A DNA stretch of 64,000 nucleotides, taken from Escherichia phage EC_OE_11. Positions 4,376 to 56,192 of the stretch are shown here, piece by piece (position 1 is the stretch's first letter; the number at the start of each line of letters is the position of its first letter). The stretch lies in the sequence record OQ108497.1. The stretch is one strand, 5' to 3'. Under the pieces are notes generated by a model. That model had not been told where the DNA came from, ran no database searches, and saw only the letters and a program-made list of their open reading frames with translations. The position numbers and the translations under genes were made by a program.

Positions 4376-6789
4376 TGGCGAATTTTCCAACATATCCTGC
4401 TACGACACTAGAACAAGGTGTTGATCTGGTTATATTCTCGTCTAACCAGATGCATGATGTTATTAATGGGGATGCTACAGCAACTGTAGAAACCGAAACA
4501 GGTTTAATACCTACACTGCGTAAAGCACTTGTTGATAACTTCTTCTTTAAGAGTCCTGTTGCTTGGTCAGCAGGATCAACTGAAACTGTATTTAACCAGT
4601 TACGTTATTTTGAAAATGGTATCTTGAGTGGGTACTATTATGCTCCATCTGCCACTACTGCGAACCCTGTACCTATGCAGGGTACACCTGTAGGAGACAG
4701 TAACTGGACTCTGTACGCTCTTAAAACTGAACAGTTAGCTTCAGATGTGTATCCTTGGTATTTTAAAGGTGCTACAGGATATGAAACAGAAATCAGTCCT
4801 CCTTATATCTTTGATAATGCTATTGTCACCATTAACGGTGTAATTCAGATTCAAGGTGAAGCATTTACTATCAAAGATAGTAAAATTATTCTGGCAGAAC
4901 CATTAGGTTTAGATCCGTCTACTGGTCTACCTAACAAATTGTTTGCTTTTATTGGTAAAACAACAGCCTCTACTTCTTACGTAGAGAAAAACCTTTTGTC
5001 ATCTACTACTGGTGCAGCAATGGTTGGTCTTCCATCTGGAGGCAACCTGTTACAAGCTCAATACTTTGTAACGCCTGAGCAGTTTGGTGCAATTGGCGAT
5101 GGAGTTACCGATGATACTCAAGCAATTTTAAAAACCATTACTTTCGCTAACACGAATAACATTCAAGTACGTGCAGATAAGAATTATAGATTCACAAGCT
5201 CAATTGCTATGTCTGGTATTCGTTGGTATGGTGGTACATTCACTGGTAACGGTGGAACAATGATTTCTACTGTATCCTGCTGGATTGAAAACGTTCGCTT
5301 TGAAAAATGTTATGTTAAGATGTTAGGTGGGGATTGCCGATTCTATCGTAATATCTTCTCCAATGCAACATCTACAGCAGCATTCTTAATGCAAGCAATG
5401 ACTAGTGAAGGTACGTTGGACTTCAGTTACAACGAAATGTATGGTTGTAAATATGCGATCCTGCAACAAGGTACTGGAGAAGTAATGACCTATGGGCGTT
5501 ACTCTAACAACTATATTCACGATATCAAAGGTGATGCTATTGAACTTAATGTAGTTCAAAGACACTACACGGAAGGTTTGATTATCGAGAATAACCACAT
5601 TGCTAACGTAGATGCTTCTGGACAAGGTGCAAACTGGGGTATTGGTATTGGTGTAGCAGGTAGTGGCCCATATGGTGTTGATGCTCCTGATTCACAATAT
5701 GTACGTAATTTCAGTATCATTGGGAATAGGGTTTACAATTGCCGTCAATGTTTACACGTTGAAATGGGTAAAAACTTCACAATACGTGATAATGAAGTTT
5801 ATCCTAACACAGCAGTTTCAACAGGTACAGGTTTAACTACTTGTGGTGTTGCATTATACGGATGCCAAGACTTTGAAGTTGATGGTTTAACTGGTTATCT
5901 GCTTAATGATCCGTCTGTTTCAACACGCATGGTCTTTATTGACTGGGGTGTTAACGGTGGAAGATATGCGGGGCCACCAATTAACTTTACAATTAAGAAT
6001 TTGGATATTCCAGAATCTTCGATTGAGATTGCAACGGCTGGATCAGACGACTGGGAAAACTCTACAATTGTTAGTAACATCAATTGTAATGATTTTAAAT
6101 GGCGTGGGCTACCATCTAGCTCTACTTTTAATAATATTCGTTGCCGTAGTATTGACTTTATTGGTCAACACGGAAGCGGAGAAGGAAGTGGTGGCGGTTT
6201 CTATGCTCGCAGCCAATTCACGTATATGAAGTGGGTAGGATGTACAGCACTTAGCGGAGATGAAACAACAGTTTCTTTTGCTAAAATCTACACGGATCGT
6301 TGCGATCAGGTTGGAAATAACTTTGGTGTTCCAACTGCTGTTGATGGTACAGGTCATCGTGGGCCAGTCTTAACCACTATTTCTGAACAATATTTTACAA
6401 CTTATGATGAATTCCCAGGTGGGCGTGAATTCCCTACTGGAACAGTTATTCATTGTGCAAGCGGTAAAAAACATGTTGTTACAGTAGGTGGTGCTTTCTT
6501 TAGTGACAACGAGAAAATAAAAGCAACTGTTACAGGTCAAACCTATCTACAGTCTAATGCTTTAAACTGGGCTAGTAATAGCTACGCTAAAGCGGCAGGT
6601 ACTAAGATTGTTATTCCAGGTGCAGGAGCAAATGGTGGCGATCTTGTGACAACTATAGCACGTGCAACATATGTGACAAATAGTTTGTACACAATAGATA
6701 TTGCAGATCCAATTGTAACACCTACAGCAGAGAATACAAAAATTAAAGCTCTGAATCCTGTTACTTTTGTCACTGTCAATAATGCTTAA
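4375..6789 (+). CDS. tailspike/tail fibre with pectate-lyase-like beta-helix (putative polysaccharide depolymerase)
   Basis: 804 aa; motif FGAIGDGVTDDTQAIL matches the N-terminal signature of the Pectate_lyase_3 family; repeated NxxG/beta-helix-like rungs (NYIHDIKGDAIEL, IENNHIANVDASGQG). Confidence 0.65.
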   Translation: MANFPTYPATTLEQGVDLVIFSSNQMHDVINGDATATVETETGLIPTLRKALVDNFFFKSPVAWSAGSTETVFNQLRYFENGILSGYYYAPSATTANPVPMQGTPVGDSNWTLYALKTEQLASDVYPWYFKGATGYETEISPPYIFDNAIVTINGVIQIQGEAFTIKDSKIILAEPLGLDPSTGLPNKLFAFIGKTTASTSYVEKNLLSSTTGAAMVGLPSGGNLLQAQYFVTPEQFGAIGDGVTDDTQAILKTITFANTNNIQVRADKNYRFTSSIAMSGIRWYGGTFTGNGGTMISTVSCWIENVRFEKCYVKMLGGDCRFYRNIFSNATSTAAFLMQAMTSEGTLDFSYNEMYGCKYAILQQGTGEVMTYGRYSNNYIHDIKGDAIELNVVQRHYTEGLIIENNHIANVDASGQGANWGIGIGVAGSGPYGVDAPDSQYVRNFSIIGNRVYNCRQCLHVEMGKNFTIRDNEVYPNTAVSTGTGLTTCGVALYGCQDFEVDGLTGYLLNDPSVSTRMVFIDWGVNGGRYAGPPINFTIKNLDIPESSIEIATAGSDDWENSTIVSNINCNDFKWRGLPSSSTFNNIRCRSIDFIGQHGSGEGSGGGFYARSQFTYMKWVGCTALSGDETTVSFAKIYTDRCDQVGNNFGVPTAVDGTGHRGPVLTTISEQYFTTYDEFPGGREFPTGTVIHCASGKKHVVTVGGAFFSDNEKIKATVTGQTYLQSNALNWASNSYAKAAGTKIVIPGAGANGGDLVTTIARATYVTNSLYTIDIADPIVTPTAENTKIKALNPVTFVTVNNA

Positions 6790-6792
6790 TTA

Positions 6793-6814
6793 AAAAGGGG
6801 CGAAAGCCCCTTTA
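6793..6814 (+). terminator. rho-independent terminator-like hairpin
   Basis: GGGGC-GAAA-GCCCC stem-loop followed by TTTATAAAA, directly after tailspike stop. Confidence 0.5.
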
Positions 6815-6830
6815 TAAAAGGAGTAGTAAA

Positions 6831-8792
6831 GTGATTTTAACACGTCCAAATAGTGCCATTGCAGACATGGTAGAGTCTCGCTATAGAAAGCGTAGAAGTT
6901 TTGCAAGTGGTTTTACCTTAAGAGATGCTCGTGAAGCATTGCTCTTTGAAGCTGACGGTAACTACTATCAGTGGAAAGGTTCTCTACCTAAAGTTGTACC
7001 TGCTAACTCTACTCCTACATCGACTGGAGGGATTTCAGATACAGCTTGGAAAAATGTGGGTAATGCAGATGACATTGCTCAAATAGAATCAGAATTAGAT
7101 GCTATTGAAGCTGAAATTGAAGATCTTAGAGAATCCATCCCAGAAGCTGGTAAATCAGCTTACCAGATTGCCGTAGACAATGGTTTCCAAGGTACTGAGA
7201 CAGAGTGGTTGGCTTCTTTAAAAGGTGATCCAGGTGCTCCATTAAAGCTATTAGGAACGCTGTCTAATACCAACCAATTACCTACAACTGGAAACAATGC
7301 AGGGGATGCATGGATTGTAGGCGAGAATATGTATGCTTGGGATGGTACTGCTTGGAGAAAAGTAAACTCACAGGGGCCAGAAGGTAAATCTGCTTATGAA
7401 GTATGGCTTGCAGCAGGAAACGAAGGTACAGAACTAGATTATCTTGCCTCAATTAAAGGTGATAAAGGGGAGCCTGGCCCAGAGGGGCCACAGGGTGTGC
7501 CAGGTAACAATGCTAATGGTTTTGATTACCAAGGTGCAGCTAATTCCGTTTCAGATCTTCCTTCTGCATCTCCTGGAAACACATCTCAAGCATGGAGTGT
7601 TGGTACATATCTATACGTGTCAAACGGTGTAGAATGGATCAATATGGGTGCTATAGTGGGGCCAAAAGGAGATAAAGGCGACAAAGGAGATAAGGGTAAC
7701 ACTGGTGATTCCGCTTATCAAGTCTGGTTAAATGCTGGTAACGTTGGTACTATTGACGAATATATTGCCTCTCTGAAAGGAGAAAAAGGTGATAAGGGAG
7801 ACAAGGGTGATCAAGGTGAGCAGGGTATACAAGGCTTGACGGGGCCAACTGGCGCAGGGTTGACCATTATTGATATTCTGACTAACACTTCTGAACTACC
7901 ACAAACTGGAGAAGATGGTGATGGTTATCTGATCAATAATGAACTTTGGGTCTGGTTGCAAGGAGCCACAGAGTGGACAAATGTTGGTCGTTTAGCTGGT
8001 ACTCCAATCACTGCAAAAGGACACGTTGCGTCTGCAAGTGCACTTCCTCCTACAGCCAATTACGGTGATGCTTATCTGACGGAAGATACAGGTCATCTTT
8101 ACATTTACACCTATGATGAACAAACTCAAACTGCTGAATATGTAGATATGGGTAGTTTGAAAGGCGATAAGGGTGAAAAAGGTGACGCTGGTACTAATGG
8201 TACAGACGGTGCAACTTGGATTGTTAAAACAACAGATCCAATCTCTAGTGATGGTAAACAAGGTGATTATGCCTTTAATATCTCCACTGGCGAGGTGTTC
8301 TTAAAAACATCTGCAACTGTCTGGACTTCTCAAGGTACACTACCTAGCATTACAGATGCACCTAGTGACGGTAAAATTTATGCTCGTAAAGATGGAGCAT
8401 GGGAAGAACTCACTAGTTCTGTAGATGGTCAAGATATAGTTCCAACAAAAGTAACAACTAATTTTATAGAGGTTACAGCATATACCAACAATTCTGTTAC
8501 AGGTGACTGGACACCTCCAGGAACACATAACATGAATGTGTTGAATCTTACTGGTAACTCTACTATAAAAGCATGGCCTGGTGTCGAAGATAGCACAAAA
8601 CCTAAACCATTCTCTGCAATAGTTTATCTTATCCAAGATGCCACTGGAGGTCGTACTGTTACTTTAGATCCATCTTATAAAGTAATTGGTTCTAGTGATA
8701 TTAATACAGATCCTAACGGAGTAACAATACTACAACTAACATATTGTGGTGTTGGCGATTACGTGGATGCTATTGTTGCTAAACGCACATAA
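6831..8792 (+). CDS. tail fibre protein with collagen-like G-X-Y repeats and phage fibre repeats
   Basis: 653 aa, GTG start after AAAGGAG; GPKGDKGDKGDKGNTGD and GEKGDKGDKGDQGEQGIQGLTGPTG collagen-like runs; three copies of KSAYxxxxxxGxxGTExxxLASLKG, the known phage tail-fibre repeat. Confidence 0.65.
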   Translation: MILTRPNSAIADMVESRYRKRRSFASGFTLRDAREALLFEADGNYYQWKGSLPKVVPANSTPTSTGGISDTAWKNVGNADDIAQIESELDAIEAEIEDLRESIPEAGKSAYQIAVDNGFQGTETEWLASLKGDPGAPLKLLGTLSNTNQLPTTGNNAGDAWIVGENMYAWDGTAWRKVNSQGPEGKSAYEVWLAAGNEGTELDYLASIKGDKGEPGPEGPQGVPGNNANGFDYQGAANSVSDLPSASPGNTSQAWSVGTYLYVSNGVEWINMGAIVGPKGDKGDKGDKGNTGDSAYQVWLNAGNVGTIDEYIASLKGEKGDKGDKGDQGEQGIQGLTGPTGAGLTIIDILTNTSELPQTGEDGDGYLINNELWVWLQGATEWTNVGRLAGTPITAKGHVASASALPPTANYGDAYLTEDTGHLYIYTYDEQTQTAEYVDMGSLKGDKGEKGDAGTNGTDGATWIVKTTDPISSDGKQGDYAFNISTGEVFLKTSATVWTSQGTLPSITDAPSDGKIYARKDGAWEELTSSVDGQDIVPTKVTTNFIEVTAYTNNSVTGDWTPPGTHNMNVLNLTGNSTIKAWPGVEDSTKPKPFSAIVYLIQDATGGRTVTLDPSYKVIGSSDINTDPNGVTILQLTYCGVGDYVDAIVAKRT

Positions 8793-51174: not shown

Positions 51175-52347
51175 ATGGTAGCACTAAAATCATGGGAACA
51201 ATATAAAGAAGAATTAATACCCCTTGCTAAAAATCACAATATTCAAATCTTGGGTTATGTTGGTGAATGGAAAGGGAACAAGACTAAACTTAAGCTATCT
51301 TGCCCTAAACATGGAGAGTGGAACACCACGAACATTAATGATTTTAAGAAGGGACGTGGTTGTCCTATCTGTTCTGGTAAGAAGCCGTTAACATGGGAAA
51401 CAGAATTGCCGATCTTGGAAGAGATAGCACAGAAGAGGGGGTATCAGGTGTTAGGGTACGTGGGAGAATGGAAAGGGAATAAAACAAAACTTGATTTGTT
51501 GTGTCATTGTGGTAATAAATGGGATACTACAAGTATTAACAATTTTAAACGTGGTAGCGGTTGTCCACAATGTAAGAGGGAGAGACAAACAATGTCCGAC
51601 GATCAACATATTGCAGATTTCTTTTCTACAGGGGAATTTAAGGAAGGCACTATCTTCACCAATACAGGGAAACGTAACAAGCGTGATGCAGTATGGATGG
51701 TTGAGTGTCCTGTTTGCTCCCATGATGAATATGTTCAAGCAGGTGTTTGTGATGGTAAATTTTACTCTGCAGGACATAACCTTAAACAAGGGTATATTCC
51801 GTGTCGTTGTGGGAACTATCAGTATACAGAAGACCAGATCACCTATAGGGTAAAAAAGGAAGTAGAAGGGAAAGGGTATGTCTGGGTAGATTGGATTACC
51901 AAACCCTCTTCTATAGGTAAGTTTAAATATCTTTGTCTTGTGCATGGTGAGCAGATAGGGAGTGCTCGTAATTTATTAAGCCTCGGTCAAGGTTGTCCAC
52001 AGTGTGCTGGTCATAATCAACAGCAATTATATATTAATATTGTTAAAGATAATGATATTATAGTTGCTCTTAAGTTTGGCATAGCTAAAGATAGTGACAG
52101 GCGATTAAACAATCAAAATAGGCGTAATATGTTTTTTATGGAGCGTATTTGTTTATATGATTTTAGTACAGTGAAACAGTGTAAGGCTGCTGAAAGAGCT
52201 ATAAAGAAAAAACTAAAAACTGGTATTTTAACAGCAAGAGAGTTGAAAGATGGTTATACAGAAACAGTAAGTGTTTCTGATTTGGAAAATCTTCAAAAAA
52301 TTATTACACAATATGGTGGCAAGTTAGTATACAGTAAGGAGGTGTAA
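51175..52347 (+). CDS. zinc-ribbon repeat protein with C-terminal T5orf172/GIY-YIG-like domain
   Basis: 390 aa; two near-identical modules (GYVGEWKGNKTKLxLxC ... GxGCPxC) plus more CxxC pairs; C-terminal LKFGIAKDSDRRL resembles the T5orf172 family. Confidence 0.35.
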   Translation: MVALKSWEQYKEELIPLAKNHNIQILGYVGEWKGNKTKLKLSCPKHGEWNTTNINDFKKGRGCPICSGKKPLTWETELPILEEIAQKRGYQVLGYVGEWKGNKTKLDLLCHCGNKWDTTSINNFKRGSGCPQCKRERQTMSDDQHIADFFSTGEFKEGTIFTNTGKRNKRDAVWMVECPVCSHDEYVQAGVCDGKFYSAGHNLKQGYIPCRCGNYQYTEDQITYRVKKEVEGKGYVWVDWITKPSSIGKFKYLCLVHGEQIGSARNLLSLGQGCPQCAGHNQQQLYINIVKDNDIIVALKFGIAKDSDRRLNNQNRRNMFFMERICLYDFSTVKQCKAAERAIKKKLKTGILTARELKDGYTETVSVSDLENLQKIITQYGGKLVYSKEV

Positions 52348-52899
52348 ATGCGGATTACTGATAAGTATGTGTTCTTCTTCTCGGCAAAAGATGAATTTAG
52401 CAACTGGTATCTATCATCTTTTATTGAACCTTTAGCTCCCAAGTATAATAATTCTATTACAAGTTCTGTTGAATTTACTTGTGTGGAACAATATATGATG
52501 TGGAGAAAAGCATGTTTGTTTTATGATTACAACATTGCATCTTCTATTTTAACCGGAGATCTAAGATATACAGGAGAAAAAGAACAGGCATATTATAAGC
52601 GACTAGGTAGATTAGTTAAAGATTACGATGAAGCTACTTGGACTTCTTTACGGGAGAAGATTGTCAAGCGTGGTTTGTATCTTAAATACACACAAAATGA
52701 AGATCTCAAAAATAAACTTATAGCTTACGCAGATAAGGAGTTTGTAGAGGCAAGTCCTTATGATTCTATTTATGGTATCAAAATGGGGATGTGGGATCGG
52801 GACGTGGAAAATAAGGATTGTTGGAAAGGACAAAATCTTTTAGGAAAATGGCATACAGACCTTGCTGTTTATCTAAAATCACAATCTGATATTTCCTGA
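52348..52899 (+). CDS. NADAR-domain protein (YbiA-like, DUF1768)
   Basis: 183 aa; motifs FFFSAKDEFSNWY, EQYMMWRKA, LGR and YDSIYGI match conserved NADAR blocks (compare E. coli YbiA FYS ... FSNF, EHYFQAQKF). Confidence 0.65.
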   Translation: MRITDKYVFFFSAKDEFSNWYLSSFIEPLAPKYNNSITSSVEFTCVEQYMMWRKACLFYDYNIASSILTGDLRYTGEKEQAYYKRLGRLVKDYDEATWTSLREKIVKRGLYLKYTQNEDLKNKLIAYADKEFVEASPYDSIYGIKMGMWDRDVENKDCWKGQNLLGKWHTDLAVYLKSQSDIS

Positions 52900-53110
52900 T
52901 ATTTTGAAAATTTTTACTTTTATAAAAAGGGGTGTGGGTTTCATGTACGGAAATCCACCCTCTGAATAATATATCCAGAGTAAATATTATTCTGTACTCT
53001 GTTAATAAAGTATTTAATTTGTTTGTTGGACTATGGTATCTGATCTTTAAAAGGCATACTATCTCTTAACTACTATTTATAACAGAACAGTAAAATCATT
53101 TTTATAAAAA

Positions 53111-53320
53111 GGACAAAATTATTTAAAGTTTTTACAGATTTTTGGATACAAATTTTGAAAATGAAAAGTTCAAGTTTGGTCAAAATTATTTAAAGTTTTT
53201 GTACGTATTTCTATCCAGATTTTGAAAATGAAAACTTCAATTTTTTAAAAATTCCCCAGTTTATTTAAAGTTTTTTTGCCTTTTTCCGTAGAAAAATCAA
53301 AAATGAAAAGTTCAATTTCG
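53111..53320. repeat. three tandem ~70 bp AT-rich direct repeats (iteron-like)
   Basis: Each unit has ATTATTTAAAGTTTTT (at about 53118, 53184, 53260) and TTTGAAAATGAAAAGTTCAA (at about 53152, 53220, 53296); no ORF across 52900-53340. Confidence 0.6.
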
Positions 53321-53335
53321 TGTTTTTATAGGTGT

Positions 53336-53460
53336 GCGTATGATAATCATTCTCATTTGTAAATGAGAATCATTATCATTTAATTATGTAAGTGATAATC
53401 ATTCTCAGTAAGAGAATGAGAATCATTAGCAAATGAGAATTTTTCTCATTTAGAGAATAA
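53336..53460. promoter_or_regulatory. cluster of Fur-box-like palindromic operator sites
   Basis: TGATAATCATTCTCATT, AATGAGAATCATTATCATT, GTGATAATCATTCTCA, GAATGAGAATCATTAGC and the perfect palindrome AAATGAGAATTTTTCTCATTT; close to the enterobacterial Fur consensus GATAATGATAATCATTATC. Confidence 0.45.
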
Positions 53461-53684
53461 CGCGCAGGGGTGGTGTTTGTCTCGCGCTCCCGTGTCCCTC
53501 GCCATACAATAAGAATAGCATAACCAACAACAAAAGCAAGCGATTATTTTTATCTTTACATTTCTTTACAAATTTATTTTAGACGAGCTACCGGCGATCA
53601 ACCTTCCAACCAGTGCCCCTGGTATGTTAGCCCCGCCTTTACGCCGTGGGGGTGGCGCTTCCTCTTCTGTATGTAAAACAGTAT

Positions 53685-53724
53685 AAGCCCGATCCCTGGG
53701 CTTGTCAAGATTATTTTTTGTTTT
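53685..53724 (+). terminator. candidate rho-independent terminator in GC-rich island
   Basis: AAGCCCGATCCCTGGGCTT hairpin followed by TTATTTTTTGTTTT. Confidence 0.35.
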
Positions 53725-54087
53725 CTTGCCAGGAAAGGACACCTAACCAAAAATACATATCGCCCCGCGCCCCTGGCGGGATCTTGCTTTCCCCGCCGCC
53801 ACTGCAAGCCCATAAATAACCATCAGCGAACGGATCAAAATGTTCTATCTCTTCCACCTTATGATCGCCCAGGTTGAGAACGGTTTCAACCTTTAAGCCC
53901 GTTGCGCTTGCTACCTGGTGCACCGTGCCGCCTTGCCAGCCCAATGAGTGCATGAGATGTAAAGGAGTATTTGTCATGGTATCGCCCTTTCTTTGATGTG
54001 CGCCCTGGTTGGCGCGGTAGAAAGATAATAGCCGTTTCCTTTATAGATAGCAAGCAAAAAGAAATGAAAAAAAGATTAAAAAATGGT

Positions 54088-54116
54088 TGACGTTCCTCAC
54101 CTGGTAGCGTAGTATT
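54088..54116 (+). promoter_or_regulatory. sigma70-like promoter
   Basis: TTGACG - 17 nt - TAGTAT. Confidence 0.4.
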
Positions 54117-54242
54117 CATCTTGTCGAGGGGGGCAAGGCACAACGACAATAAACAATAGGCGGGTGCAATGCAGGACGGGCAAAGGTGAGGATCTCCACA
54201 ATCCACCGTCACAATAACATTACTTATAAAAGGTTGATAACG

Positions 54243-54338
54243 ATGATCAAGAAAGAAAACAGCTTGACGGTTGGAACGATTAACGCTATCATTCTAGCCG
54301 TTCCATTTTGGATTGTAGTAGCGGTTGTTATTTTCTAA
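54243..54338 (+). CDS. small hydrophobic peptide (31 aa)
   Basis: MIKKENSLTVGTINAIILAVPFWIVVAVVIF; AAAAGG upstream; about 120 nt structured leader from promoter at 54088. Confidence 0.3.
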   Translation: MIKKENSLTVGTINAIILAVPFWIVVAVVIF

Positions 54339-54347
54339 AAAATATTC

Positions 54348-55226: not shown

Positions 55227-55373
55227 ATGAAACAATATGTAATGAGTATCCACACCAAAAACGGCGCTACTGTTACGACTCCGGCACGGTTTGCACTTGT
55301 AAACCGTTGCAAGAGACTAAAACGAGAGTTAAAAAATAACCGTGCAACGGGCTTTAAACGCTGGGGAGGATAA
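55227..55373 (+). CDS. hypothetical small basic early protein
   Basis: 48 aa ORF (below track cutoff) directly behind promoter-hairpin. Confidence 0.3.
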   Translation: MKQYVMSIHTKNGATVTTPARFALVNRCKRLKRELKNNRATGFKRWGG

Positions 55374-55375
55374 TC

Positions 55376-55636
55376 TTGTTTTTTCTAAAAGTTTGTGATA
55401 ATGTGATCGCTTTTGAACATGCTACAACGTTCGACCTGGCGAGATACGCTATCAGGTTTAAAGATAATGTTTATCCCCGTGCTGGCGGCGGTTACACTAT
55501 TTTTAATCACCGTAACGCTCAATTAACGGATATAACTAATCCAGATCCTGGAGTGTATCGCATAGGCTGGCTACCGTCAAAAGACGCTGCAAGCATGTTT
55601 AAGGTGTGCAAACTACTAACAGAAGAGGCGAACTAA
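55376..55636 (+). CDS. hypothetical early protein
   Basis: 86 aa; TTG start in ORF track, GGAGG 6 nt upstream; an in-frame GTG downstream is an alternative start. Confidence 0.3.
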   Translation: MFFLKVCDNVIAFEHATTFDLARYAIRFKDNVYPRAGGGYTIFNHRNAQLTDITNPDPGVYRIGWLPSKDAASMFKVCKLLTEEAN

Positions 55637-55637
55637 C

Positions 55638-56192
55638 ATGGGGCGTGAATATGTGATCCAGTCCTGGGTAAAGCATGATGCTAATGATCCGCGCATAATA
55701 CCAGATGACATGATCGATCACATGGTAGGGTATAGCGGGGAGCAGATAGGAAATCGAGCGGCAAAGAGCAACGGCAACACCAGGACGCGATCCGTTCGCC
55801 CTGGATGGCTGGCGAATGGTAACGCTGACATTGCAAGCGCCGCAGATCCAAGCGATGACGCTAAAAATAATCCCTTATACAGCATTGATCCGGCTTTTAA
55901 GGTGTTAGAAGAGTATCCCGCTAAATTAGCCGCACTAGATAAGGCATACGAAGAAAAGCGCATGGCATGGACTGTATACAACACCGCTAAAATGGTGCTA
56001 GATGCAAAATTGATTAAAGCCCAGGAGAAGATCAATAAACTTGTTACCATAGCGCAAGAGGAAGACCAGGACTACCAGGAGGAAGCGGAAGAAATCATGC
56101 CTACTCTGGAAGAGGAAGAGATCCAGCCATACATGCCGACGGAAGAGGAAAAAAGACAAGCCCTAAAAAATTATGAAAATTGCATTGTGTAA
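55638..56192 (+). CDS. hypothetical early protein with acidic C-terminal region
   Basis: 184 aa; start overlaps upstream stop; Glu-rich tail. Confidence 0.4.
   Translation: MGREYVIQSWVKHDANDPRIIPDDMIDHMVGYSGEQIGNRAAKSNGNTRTRSVRPGWLANGNADIASAADPSDDAKNNPLYSIDPAFKVLEEYPAKLAALDKAYEEKRMAWTVYNTAKMVLDAKLIKAQEKINKLVTIAQEEDQDYQEEAEEIMPTLEEEEIQPYMPTEEEKRQALKNYENCIV

Follow-up and report, generated by a model that had tools for sequence, protein, structure and literature searches.

What is carried by the GC-rich segment at positions 53460 to 54340 of a 64,000-nucleotide stretch of Escherichia phage EC_OE_11 (OQ108497.1; the whole stretch is called the window below)? An annotation made from the letters alone, the original prediction, saw a horizontally acquired island with a structured non-coding transcript and a type I toxin-like peptide. 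The best explanation is a different one: a phi92-like phage has here a conserved early transcription unit, read leftward on the minus strand, and the segment forms its GC-rich head. The noteworthy content of the segment is a conserved 92-nt phage RNA element without a match in Rfam, located in a regulatory hub that the transposon data of a relative mark as important.

The window belongs to a phi92-like phage (Justusliebigvirus, Stephanstirmvirinae), and the segment is 96 to 98% identical to the corresponding DNA of such phages over its full length; for the BASEL phages JohannJBalmer and PaulScherrer the figure is 98%. The only feature annotated within it in the phi92 record is Phi92_gp224, on the minus strand, and other phage records place one to seven inconsistent “hypothetical proteins” over it. 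The anatomy described below is well supported: promoters, synteny, a covarying RNA fold and the coding nature of two open reading frames (ORFs) have been shown. It explains why annotation pipelines have put such inconsistent proteins here.

A conserved, covarying RNA element behind promoter P1

The leftward transcripts would be launched by a sigma70 promoter, P1, at 53680-53708 on the minus strand (TTGACA-17-TATACT, 11 of 12 consensus positions). A promoter with at least 9 of 12 consensus positions occupies the same place in all 34 distinct upstream contexts of relatives. The spacer of P1 contains a GC hairpin (53685-53703) that relatives retain with different sequences. A terminator had been proposed at 53685-53724; its hairpin is present, but on the plus strand the T-run comes only about 12 nt past the stem, and a terminator scan flagged the 53685-53703 site on the minus strand only. 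A second, probable role of the spacer hairpin is the termination or attenuation of the gp224 transcript, which arrives from the right.

Directly behind P1, the minus strand carries the structured RNA element (53581-53672), in which a hairpin and a candidate pseudoknot precede a stem-loop that covaries and a 3′ tail that does not change. Hairpin S1 pairs CGCC (53657-53654) with GGCG (53645-53642) and is invariant. The candidate pseudoknot joins the loop sequence CCCC (53652-53648) to GGGG (53634-53631). The stem-loop P3 follows at 53626-53607, and then the 18-nt tail AAGGUUGAUCGCCGGUAG at 53605-53588 (as RNA, AAGGUGRAUCGCCGGUAG). Among relatives the loops vary in length and 1-nt insertions and deletions occur, so the element is not coding. 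Thus, the predicted structured non-coding transcript exists on the minus strand behind P1, and not as the plus-strand leader in which it had been sought.

Evidence for the fold comes from covariation. Compensatory changes are found at six of the seven P3 pairs, and the covariation score of the whole structure is 0.191, compared with 0.066 in shuffled alignments (0 of 500 reach the observed value) and at most 0.066 in controls in which the pairing partners were slid along the sequence. An independent MAFFT alignment (A4) yielded 0.163 versus 0.065. The pseudoknot is consistent with a subfamily of Erwinia phage elements in which the loop CCAA faces UUGG in place of the CCCC:GGGG combination. One pseudoknot pair changes from C-G to A-U in six sequences, a second gains an A-U pair, and there is one G-U change, so that these substitutions amount to essentially one evolutionary event. 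The G-U pairs of phage 4MG (a C-to-U change) and of a second relative (L008) are compatible with the minus strand only. A long-range helix between GGCGG and UCGCC, predicted by RNAalifold, was abandoned, as its 5′ arm is missing from the Erwinia-type subfamily.

The element family is widespread in phages of Enterobacterales

In a sensitive nucleotide search, the DNA at 53553-53677 was 80 to 85% identical to sequences in Klebsiella, Cronobacter, Pectobacterium, Salmonella and Enterobacter phages. These phages share little further nucleotide similarity with the window at this locus, and the matching DNA is mostly unannotated. A covariance model of the element, R1, found a single copy in the window (100.7 bits, E = 4e-29) and 51 copies, 45 of them distinct, in phage genomes, viral contigs and metagenomes, covering Stephanstirmvirinae and most Vequintavirinae. 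The hosts of these phages include Escherichia, Klebsiella, Salmonella, Cronobacter, Pectobacterium, Erwinia and Serratia. Each source holds one copy, except for a rearranged contig, L027, with one interrupted and one variant copy.

Bacterial genome contigs yielded chance matches only, apart from one short contig binned in a metagenome-assembled genome (MAG), and no copy was found in E. coli genomes. That contig (JAEZZU010000352.1, labeled “MAG: Proteobacteria bacterium”) is 4 kb long, and its copy of the element is complete and of the phAPEC8 type (93.7 bits); although binned as bacterial, it is most likely phage DNA. Wide and narrow scans with the Rfam 15 covariance models returned nothing at the gathering threshold, the best E values of 0.6 to 5.5 being far under the cutoffs. 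A limited literature search did not turn up the element, and searches for transcriptomes or small RNAs (sRNAs) of these phages returned nothing relevant.

The exceptional contig L027, from IMG/VR, is informative about how the locus is held together. A cassette (6295-7128, minus strand) is inserted exactly in the tail, between GGATCGC and CGG. Its ORF of 197 residues has a ribosome-binding site of its own; next come another promoter and a variant element, which abuts the remaining part of the tail. The cassette looks like that of a homing endonuclease; the 197-residue ORF has no HNH match in Pfam. Klebsiella phage NDO71 carries a divergent copy of the element without this ORF. Since the insertion hit the most invariant sequence and the arrangement was rebuilt around it, the contiguity of promoter, element and downstream DNA appears to be selected.

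P1 transcripts are predicted to run through a second promoter into AT-rich repeats

A minus-strand scan detected no terminator 3′ of the tail and no terminator-like site between P1 and 52927-52965, which indicates that transcription continues past the element. The first feature that it would meet, about 20 nt further on and just upstream of a second promoter, is a CpxR-type box, GTAAAGAAATGTAAA (53555-53569, minus strand). The box is an exact GTAAA-N5-GTAAA match to the consensus for phosphorylated CpxR (CpxR-P), GTAAA(N)4-8GTAAA (PMC9603713). It is perfect, and at an identical offset from the tail, in 32 of 43 distinct contexts, and the remaining lineages retain one half-site. The window contains two matches to the consensus against 0.38 expected by chance, an excess that is statistically weak alone.

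Promoter P2 (53512-53539, minus strand) has its -35 hexamer TTGCTT at 53539-53534 and its -10 hexamer TATTCT at 53517-53512. The aligned hexamers are kept across all genera (-35, TTGATC, TTGCAA or TTGACC; -10, TATTAT or TATATT). In the window, phAPEC8 and Av-05, an insertion of 9 to 10 nt (10 nt in the window), about one helical turn, separates the box from the -35 hexamer. P2 transcripts are predicted to begin with a long 5′-terminal hairpin, Domain 2 (53465-53512, minus strand), with GAGACAAACACC (53472-53483) in its apical region. Thirty-four distinct relatives, rV5, Bas48 and Bas52 among them, share this sequence block, and per-sequence folds gave the same outer stem, inner stem and loop in nearly all of 24 relatives. 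RNAalifold found no consensus on a MAFFT alignment of the hairpin because its variable arms misalign.

The P2 hairpin abuts a series of palindromes that resemble the Fur box (GAGAATGATTATCATT type). There are 14 of them in the window compared with 1.5 expected, and 10 lie at 53336-53450. In 37 of 43 distinct contexts, at least two Fur-like palindromes follow the element within 300 nt; a ACTATCAC-type repeat takes their place in three environmental contigs (L035, L037 and L038). As in CpxR-P operators, the putative CpxR site adjoins a -35 hexamer, and as at Fur operators, palindromes close to the Fur box are enriched. Unlike such operators, these boxes lie in a virulent phage and flank a promoter without a coding gene; in addition, some lineages have a degenerate second CpxR half-site, and the Fur-like sites are downstream of P2 rather than over it.

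Both P1 and P2 are directed into DNA of 21 to 24% GC that contains three AT-rich direct repeats of about 70 nt (53098-53318; 21% GC), which include TGAAAATGAAAAGTTCAA. Repeats with a similar GAAAAYGAAAA core are found at the same place in rV5, PVP-SE1 and 4MG. Further left, at 52927-52965 on the minus strand, lies a candidate terminator of the leftward non-coding transcripts, a hairpin followed by the U-run CCUUUUUAU (fold z = -2.44). Judging from this site, the leftward transcripts probably end near 52930.

Transposon data indicate that the homologous hub matters for growth of phage Bas54

The rV5-type phages (Vequintavirus) lack the pseudoknot element. At its place, they have a second copy of a module made of a promoter, a GAGACAA hairpin and a Fur box. 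One of them, Bas54 (phage MaxBurger), has a published transposon map in which bas54_0101 is classified as “Essential” (0 of 11 sites hit) and bas54_0102, with 5 of 15 sites hit, as having a “Strong fitness defect,” whereas genes on either side are non-essential (bioRxiv 10.1101/2025.11.20.689424). Exact counts of TA sites (3, 11, 15, 14 and 13) confirmed the mapping of the locus. The ORF bas54_0102 overlies both promoter, hairpin and Fur-box modules, with its ATG inside a Fur-like box, and bas54_0101 corresponds to AT-rich DNA just downstream of these modules. The transposon data and this mapping together indicate that the homologous hub matters for growth of Bas54. The insertion-free intergenic region of about 2 kb described in the same preprint (bioRxiv 10.1101/2025.11.20.689424) was considered and set aside, as it is a different locus, at 92.8 to 95.3 kb.

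The ORFs annotated over the hub in Bas54 (MZ501093.1: 81627-82064), rV5 (ORF198) and phAPEC8 (phAPEC8_00257, L007:1518-1859) are on the strand opposite to the promoters and differ between records. To judge from their position and lack of consistency, they are probably spurious. This suggests that bas54_0101, listed as an “essential gene of unknown function,” and bas54_0102 are non-coding DNA.

A cis-acting role for the RNA element is tentatively favored

The arrangement of the locus can be read as follows. Two early promoters placed back to back at 54025-54115 would fire in opposite directions, the leftward one expressing the 88-residue protein of the gp224 family. P1, with its spacer hairpin, would launch the 92-nt RNA domain, that is, the hairpin, the pseudoknot, the covarying stem-loop and the invariant single-stranded tail. 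Its transcript would run on through the CpxR-type box and P2 into the Fur-box-like palindromes and the AT-rich repeats, and P2 would add transcripts that start with their own conserved hairpin. The RNA domain would act in cis: it would be the structured 5′ portion of a non-coding transcript, and this transcript would activate, prime or regulate the essential AT-rich element to its left. The latter looks like an origin or a control region, and host CpxR and Fur could possibly gate its activity.

We favor such a cis role for an RNA domain heading a non-coding early transcript into an essential AT-rich element, while giving it somewhat less than an even chance. Several features count for it, namely, the lack of a terminator after the element, the fixed offset between tail and GTAAA box in 32 of 43 contexts, the L027 cassette that rebuilds promoter and element against the tail, and the replacement module at the same place in rV5-type phages. 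A more specific version is unlikely to hold in full: the pseudoknot RNA and the tandem promoters would form a host-gated control region of an essential non-coding element, perhaps an RNA-primed or RNA-licensed origin, in rV5-like and phi92-like phages, its firing tuned by envelope stress through the CpxR box and by iron through the Fur boxes, with the RNA as a required cis component.

Known systems offer partial parallels. The primary origin of T7 combines tandem promoters with an AT-rich region, and origins primed or activated by transcription include oriF and oriG of T4, with their R-loops, and that of ColE1, with RNA II. The present locus shares with them tandem strong promoters firing into AT-rich repeats, a structured non-coding RNA at the head of the transcript, and a homologous region apparently needed for growth in a relative, Bas54, itself devoid of the pseudoknot element. 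It differs in that it shows no sequence or structure similarity to ColE1 RNA II, its AT-rich repeats are not universal, and CpxR-type and Fur-type boxes are not known as features of the T7, T4 and ColE1 origins. RNA structures close to promoters are also known in phages, as exemplified by the antiterminator put RNAs of HK022, the pseudoknot of the T4 gene 32 leader and the phi29 pRNA. The common point is a compact conserved fold, maintained by covariation and with a candidate H-type pseudoknot, directly after an early promoter. In contrast with these structures, no coding gene lies downstream of the element to be regulated or antiterminated into, and no link to a single-stranded DNA-binding protein gene or to packaging is evident; the element also has no Rfam match.

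A number of observations weigh against the cis interpretation or the evidence on which it is built. Bas54 itself lacks the pseudoknot element, and its insertion-free part is the AT-rich DNA to the left of the segment, not the GC-rich part. The non-coding gap of PVP-SE1 is only about 335 nt long, so the AT-rich repeats are not a universal companion of the element. Both the 5′ and the 3′ ends of the transcripts are inferred. The alignment used for the covariation analysis (A5) was fitted to the covariance model, the MAFFT alignment A4 giving the same picture; S1 and the tail never vary and are therefore uninformative on pairing; and the changes that support the pseudoknot come down, in essence, to a single evolutionary switch and one wobble change. 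The single-sequence folding energy of the element is no better than that of shuffled sequences (z = -0.20), whichever strand is folded. Finally, the invariant tail resembles the seed of an sRNA and so favors a role in trans.

Such a trans-acting early RNA, which would use the invariant tail and either pair with its target as an sRNA, bind a protein or serve as a decoy, is nearly as plausible as the cis role, although we consider it doubtful. The pseudoknot and stem-loop would then be a stable scaffold, and the tail or the GAGACAAACACC loop would contact a host target common to all Enterobacterales hosts. Given the strength and conservation of P1 as a sigma70 promoter, the host polymerase would make the RNA early; the 18-nt tail stays invariant while the adjoining stems drift and covary; and the element family spans phages of hosts from Escherichia to Serratia. 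However, neither a terminator nor an Hfq-type 3′ end follows the tail, no site complementary to the tail or to the GAGACAAACACC loop was found elsewhere in the 64-kb window, and the Vequintavirus phages do without the element.

It is improbable that conservation acts mainly at the DNA level, with the RNA fold being incidental to an array of protein-binding sites and promoter architecture such as the upstream region of P2, a homing-endonuclease target and host-factor boxes. In favor of this view, the least variable parts (S1, the tail and the GTAAA box) are constant and hence say nothing for pairing, the mobile cassette of L027 is inserted exactly in the tail, and the tail lies at a fixed distance from the box upstream of P2. 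A double-stranded binding site would not, however, require compensatory changes, and the P3 pairs that change on both sides with pairing kept thus weaken a purely DNA-level explanation. The tolerance of G-U pairs on the minus strand only and the freely varying lengths of the hairpin loops also argue against it.

The locus provides a defined RNA element with clear mutational targets: promoter P1, the tail and stems of the RNA, and the boxes of CpxR and Fur type. A virulent phage would be reading stress and iron signals of its host if CpxR and Fur do act here, and if the RNA does belong to an origin or control region, it would be one that matches no Rfam 15 family. Phages of the rV5-like and phi92-like groups have a broad host range and are candidates for therapeutic use.

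Two small conserved genes flank the divergent early promoters

The segment had been described as devoid of a convincing long ORF. This view overlooked an 88-residue gene at 53711-53977 on the minus strand, just upstream of P1, with an AAGGG ribosome-binding site. Its product, of the Phi92_gp224 family (phrog_19316), is a five-helix protein with the motif LGWQGGTVHQVA. The ratio of nonsynonymous to synonymous divergence (pN/pS) is 0.10 to 0.57 over all pairs and 0.10 to 0.52 against the copy in the window, in comparisons with homologues from phAPEC8, Av-05, Kashira and Klebsiella phages, as expected of a gene under purifying selection. A candidate promoter for gp224 (TTGCTA-17-TATTAT, 9 of 12 consensus positions) lies at 54025-54053 on the minus strand and is followed, as read from the sequence, by a GCGCC..GGCGC 5′ hairpin and then by the ribosome-binding site.

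Back to back with it, a rightward early sigma70 promoter (TTGACG-17-TAGTAT) occupies 54087-54115 on the plus strand. This promoter had been predicted with coordinates one base off. Its conservation extends across Stephanstirmvirinae, eight members of which retain both hexamers, even 92CQ, in which the spacer has been replaced. In phAPEC8, the promoter drives a different gene directly. In the window, it precedes a plus-strand gene (54243-54338) for a membrane protein of 31 residues, which consists of MIKKENSLTVGT and a single predicted hydrophobic helix. The reading frame, which the original prediction had recognized, is kept in diverged relatives; homologues have 34 residues in phi92 and PD06 and 35 in alia, and tblastn found the ORF in 113 phage records. 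With pS of 0.30 to 0.37 and pN of 0.04 to 0.11 (pN/pS about 0.1 to 0.36), the ORF is a conserved small membrane protein gene in an ordinary early-gene cassette. An array of early promoter cassettes lies to the right; the initial transcribed motif CACATAGGGCGG occurs eight times on the plus strand between 54380 and 61763, against 1.5 expected.

The further proposal that promoter, long structured leader and peptide form a type I toxin-antitoxin module is not supported. The peptide has no Pfam or PHROG match at E values up to 0.1 or 0.01 and matches no toxin family. The leader (54117-54242) folds no better than shuffled sequences (z = -0.22), and it does not travel with the ORF. The peptide gene of ESCO13 lies at a distance of about 2 kb and has a leader of about 55 nt, with a standard early promoter, a 5′ hairpin and a ribosome-binding site. 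That of Klebsiella phage 05F01 has no leader; it overlaps the preceding gene at the stop codon and is translationally coupled. The long leader is thus not part of the peptide gene cassette. The only antisense promoter candidate, at 54339-54312, matches 9 of 12 consensus positions, a chance-level finding given that about seven promoter-like sites are expected by chance in a 2.2-kb stretch, and its -10 hexamer is altered in alia and phi92. Among the antitoxin families of Rfam, the sole match was to ohsC, located elsewhere, with 16 bits against a 50-bit cutoff (E = 5.5).

Like the Hok/Sok, TisB/IstR, Ldr/Rdl and Zor/Orz loci, this one has a tiny ORF for a single hydrophobic helix downstream of a sigma70 promoter. 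It differs from them by the lack of toxin homology, of a conserved antisense RNA and of a leader conserved with the ORF, and by the membership of the peptide gene in an array of early cassettes. Small size and hydrophobicity are the only type I features present. A type I module on recently acquired DNA, for which the antisense promoter-like site and the raised GC could be invoked, is therefore largely refuted by the architecture and the synteny of the locus across subfamilies, and we regard it as very unlikely.

A 10-of-12 promoter-like sequence (TTGACG-17-TATCAT) is present inside the 31-residue ORF at 54264-54292, over the conserved NSLTVG codons; the Klebsiella homologue has TTGACA-17-TTTAAT. 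The conserved N terminus of the peptide may thus carry a dual constraint.

Composition and synteny of the segment

The segment is indeed GC-rich, at 46.2% against 37.9% for the whole window. The GC content of 500-nt windows has a standard deviation of 3.0%, and the maximum over the 64 kb, 48.8%, starts at 53601 (z about 3.6). The enrichment is a mosaic: the P2 hairpin has 58% GC, the RNA element 60% and the gp224 gene 50%, with a stretch of 27% in between. The gp224 gene is the only one with an atypical codon composition, its GC content at third codon positions (GC3) being 52% compared with 27 to 40% in its neighbors. A second GC-rich patch, of about 47.5%, at 55300-56000 shows that the shift is not unique to the segment. 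The compositional shift from which horizontal acquisition had been deduced is thus real, but a recent acquisition is contradicted by the synteny of the whole arrangement across two phage subfamilies, Stephanstirmvirinae and Vequintavirinae. The segment is a composite of conserved features and not a recent island.

The second GC-rich patch contains an ORF (55638-56192) with a GC3 of 49%, similar to that of gp224. On the other side of the hub, the upstream plus-strand genes at 51175-52899 code for a 390-residue protein with CapR and T5orf172 (endonuclease-type) domains and a 183-residue NADAR-domain protein. Lastly, the phage records MG0656xx (“Campylobacter phage A110a, D1, C9 ...”) are 91 to 97% identical to E. 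coli phi92-like and rV5-like phages at the locus, and their Campylobacter jejuni host labels look doubtful.

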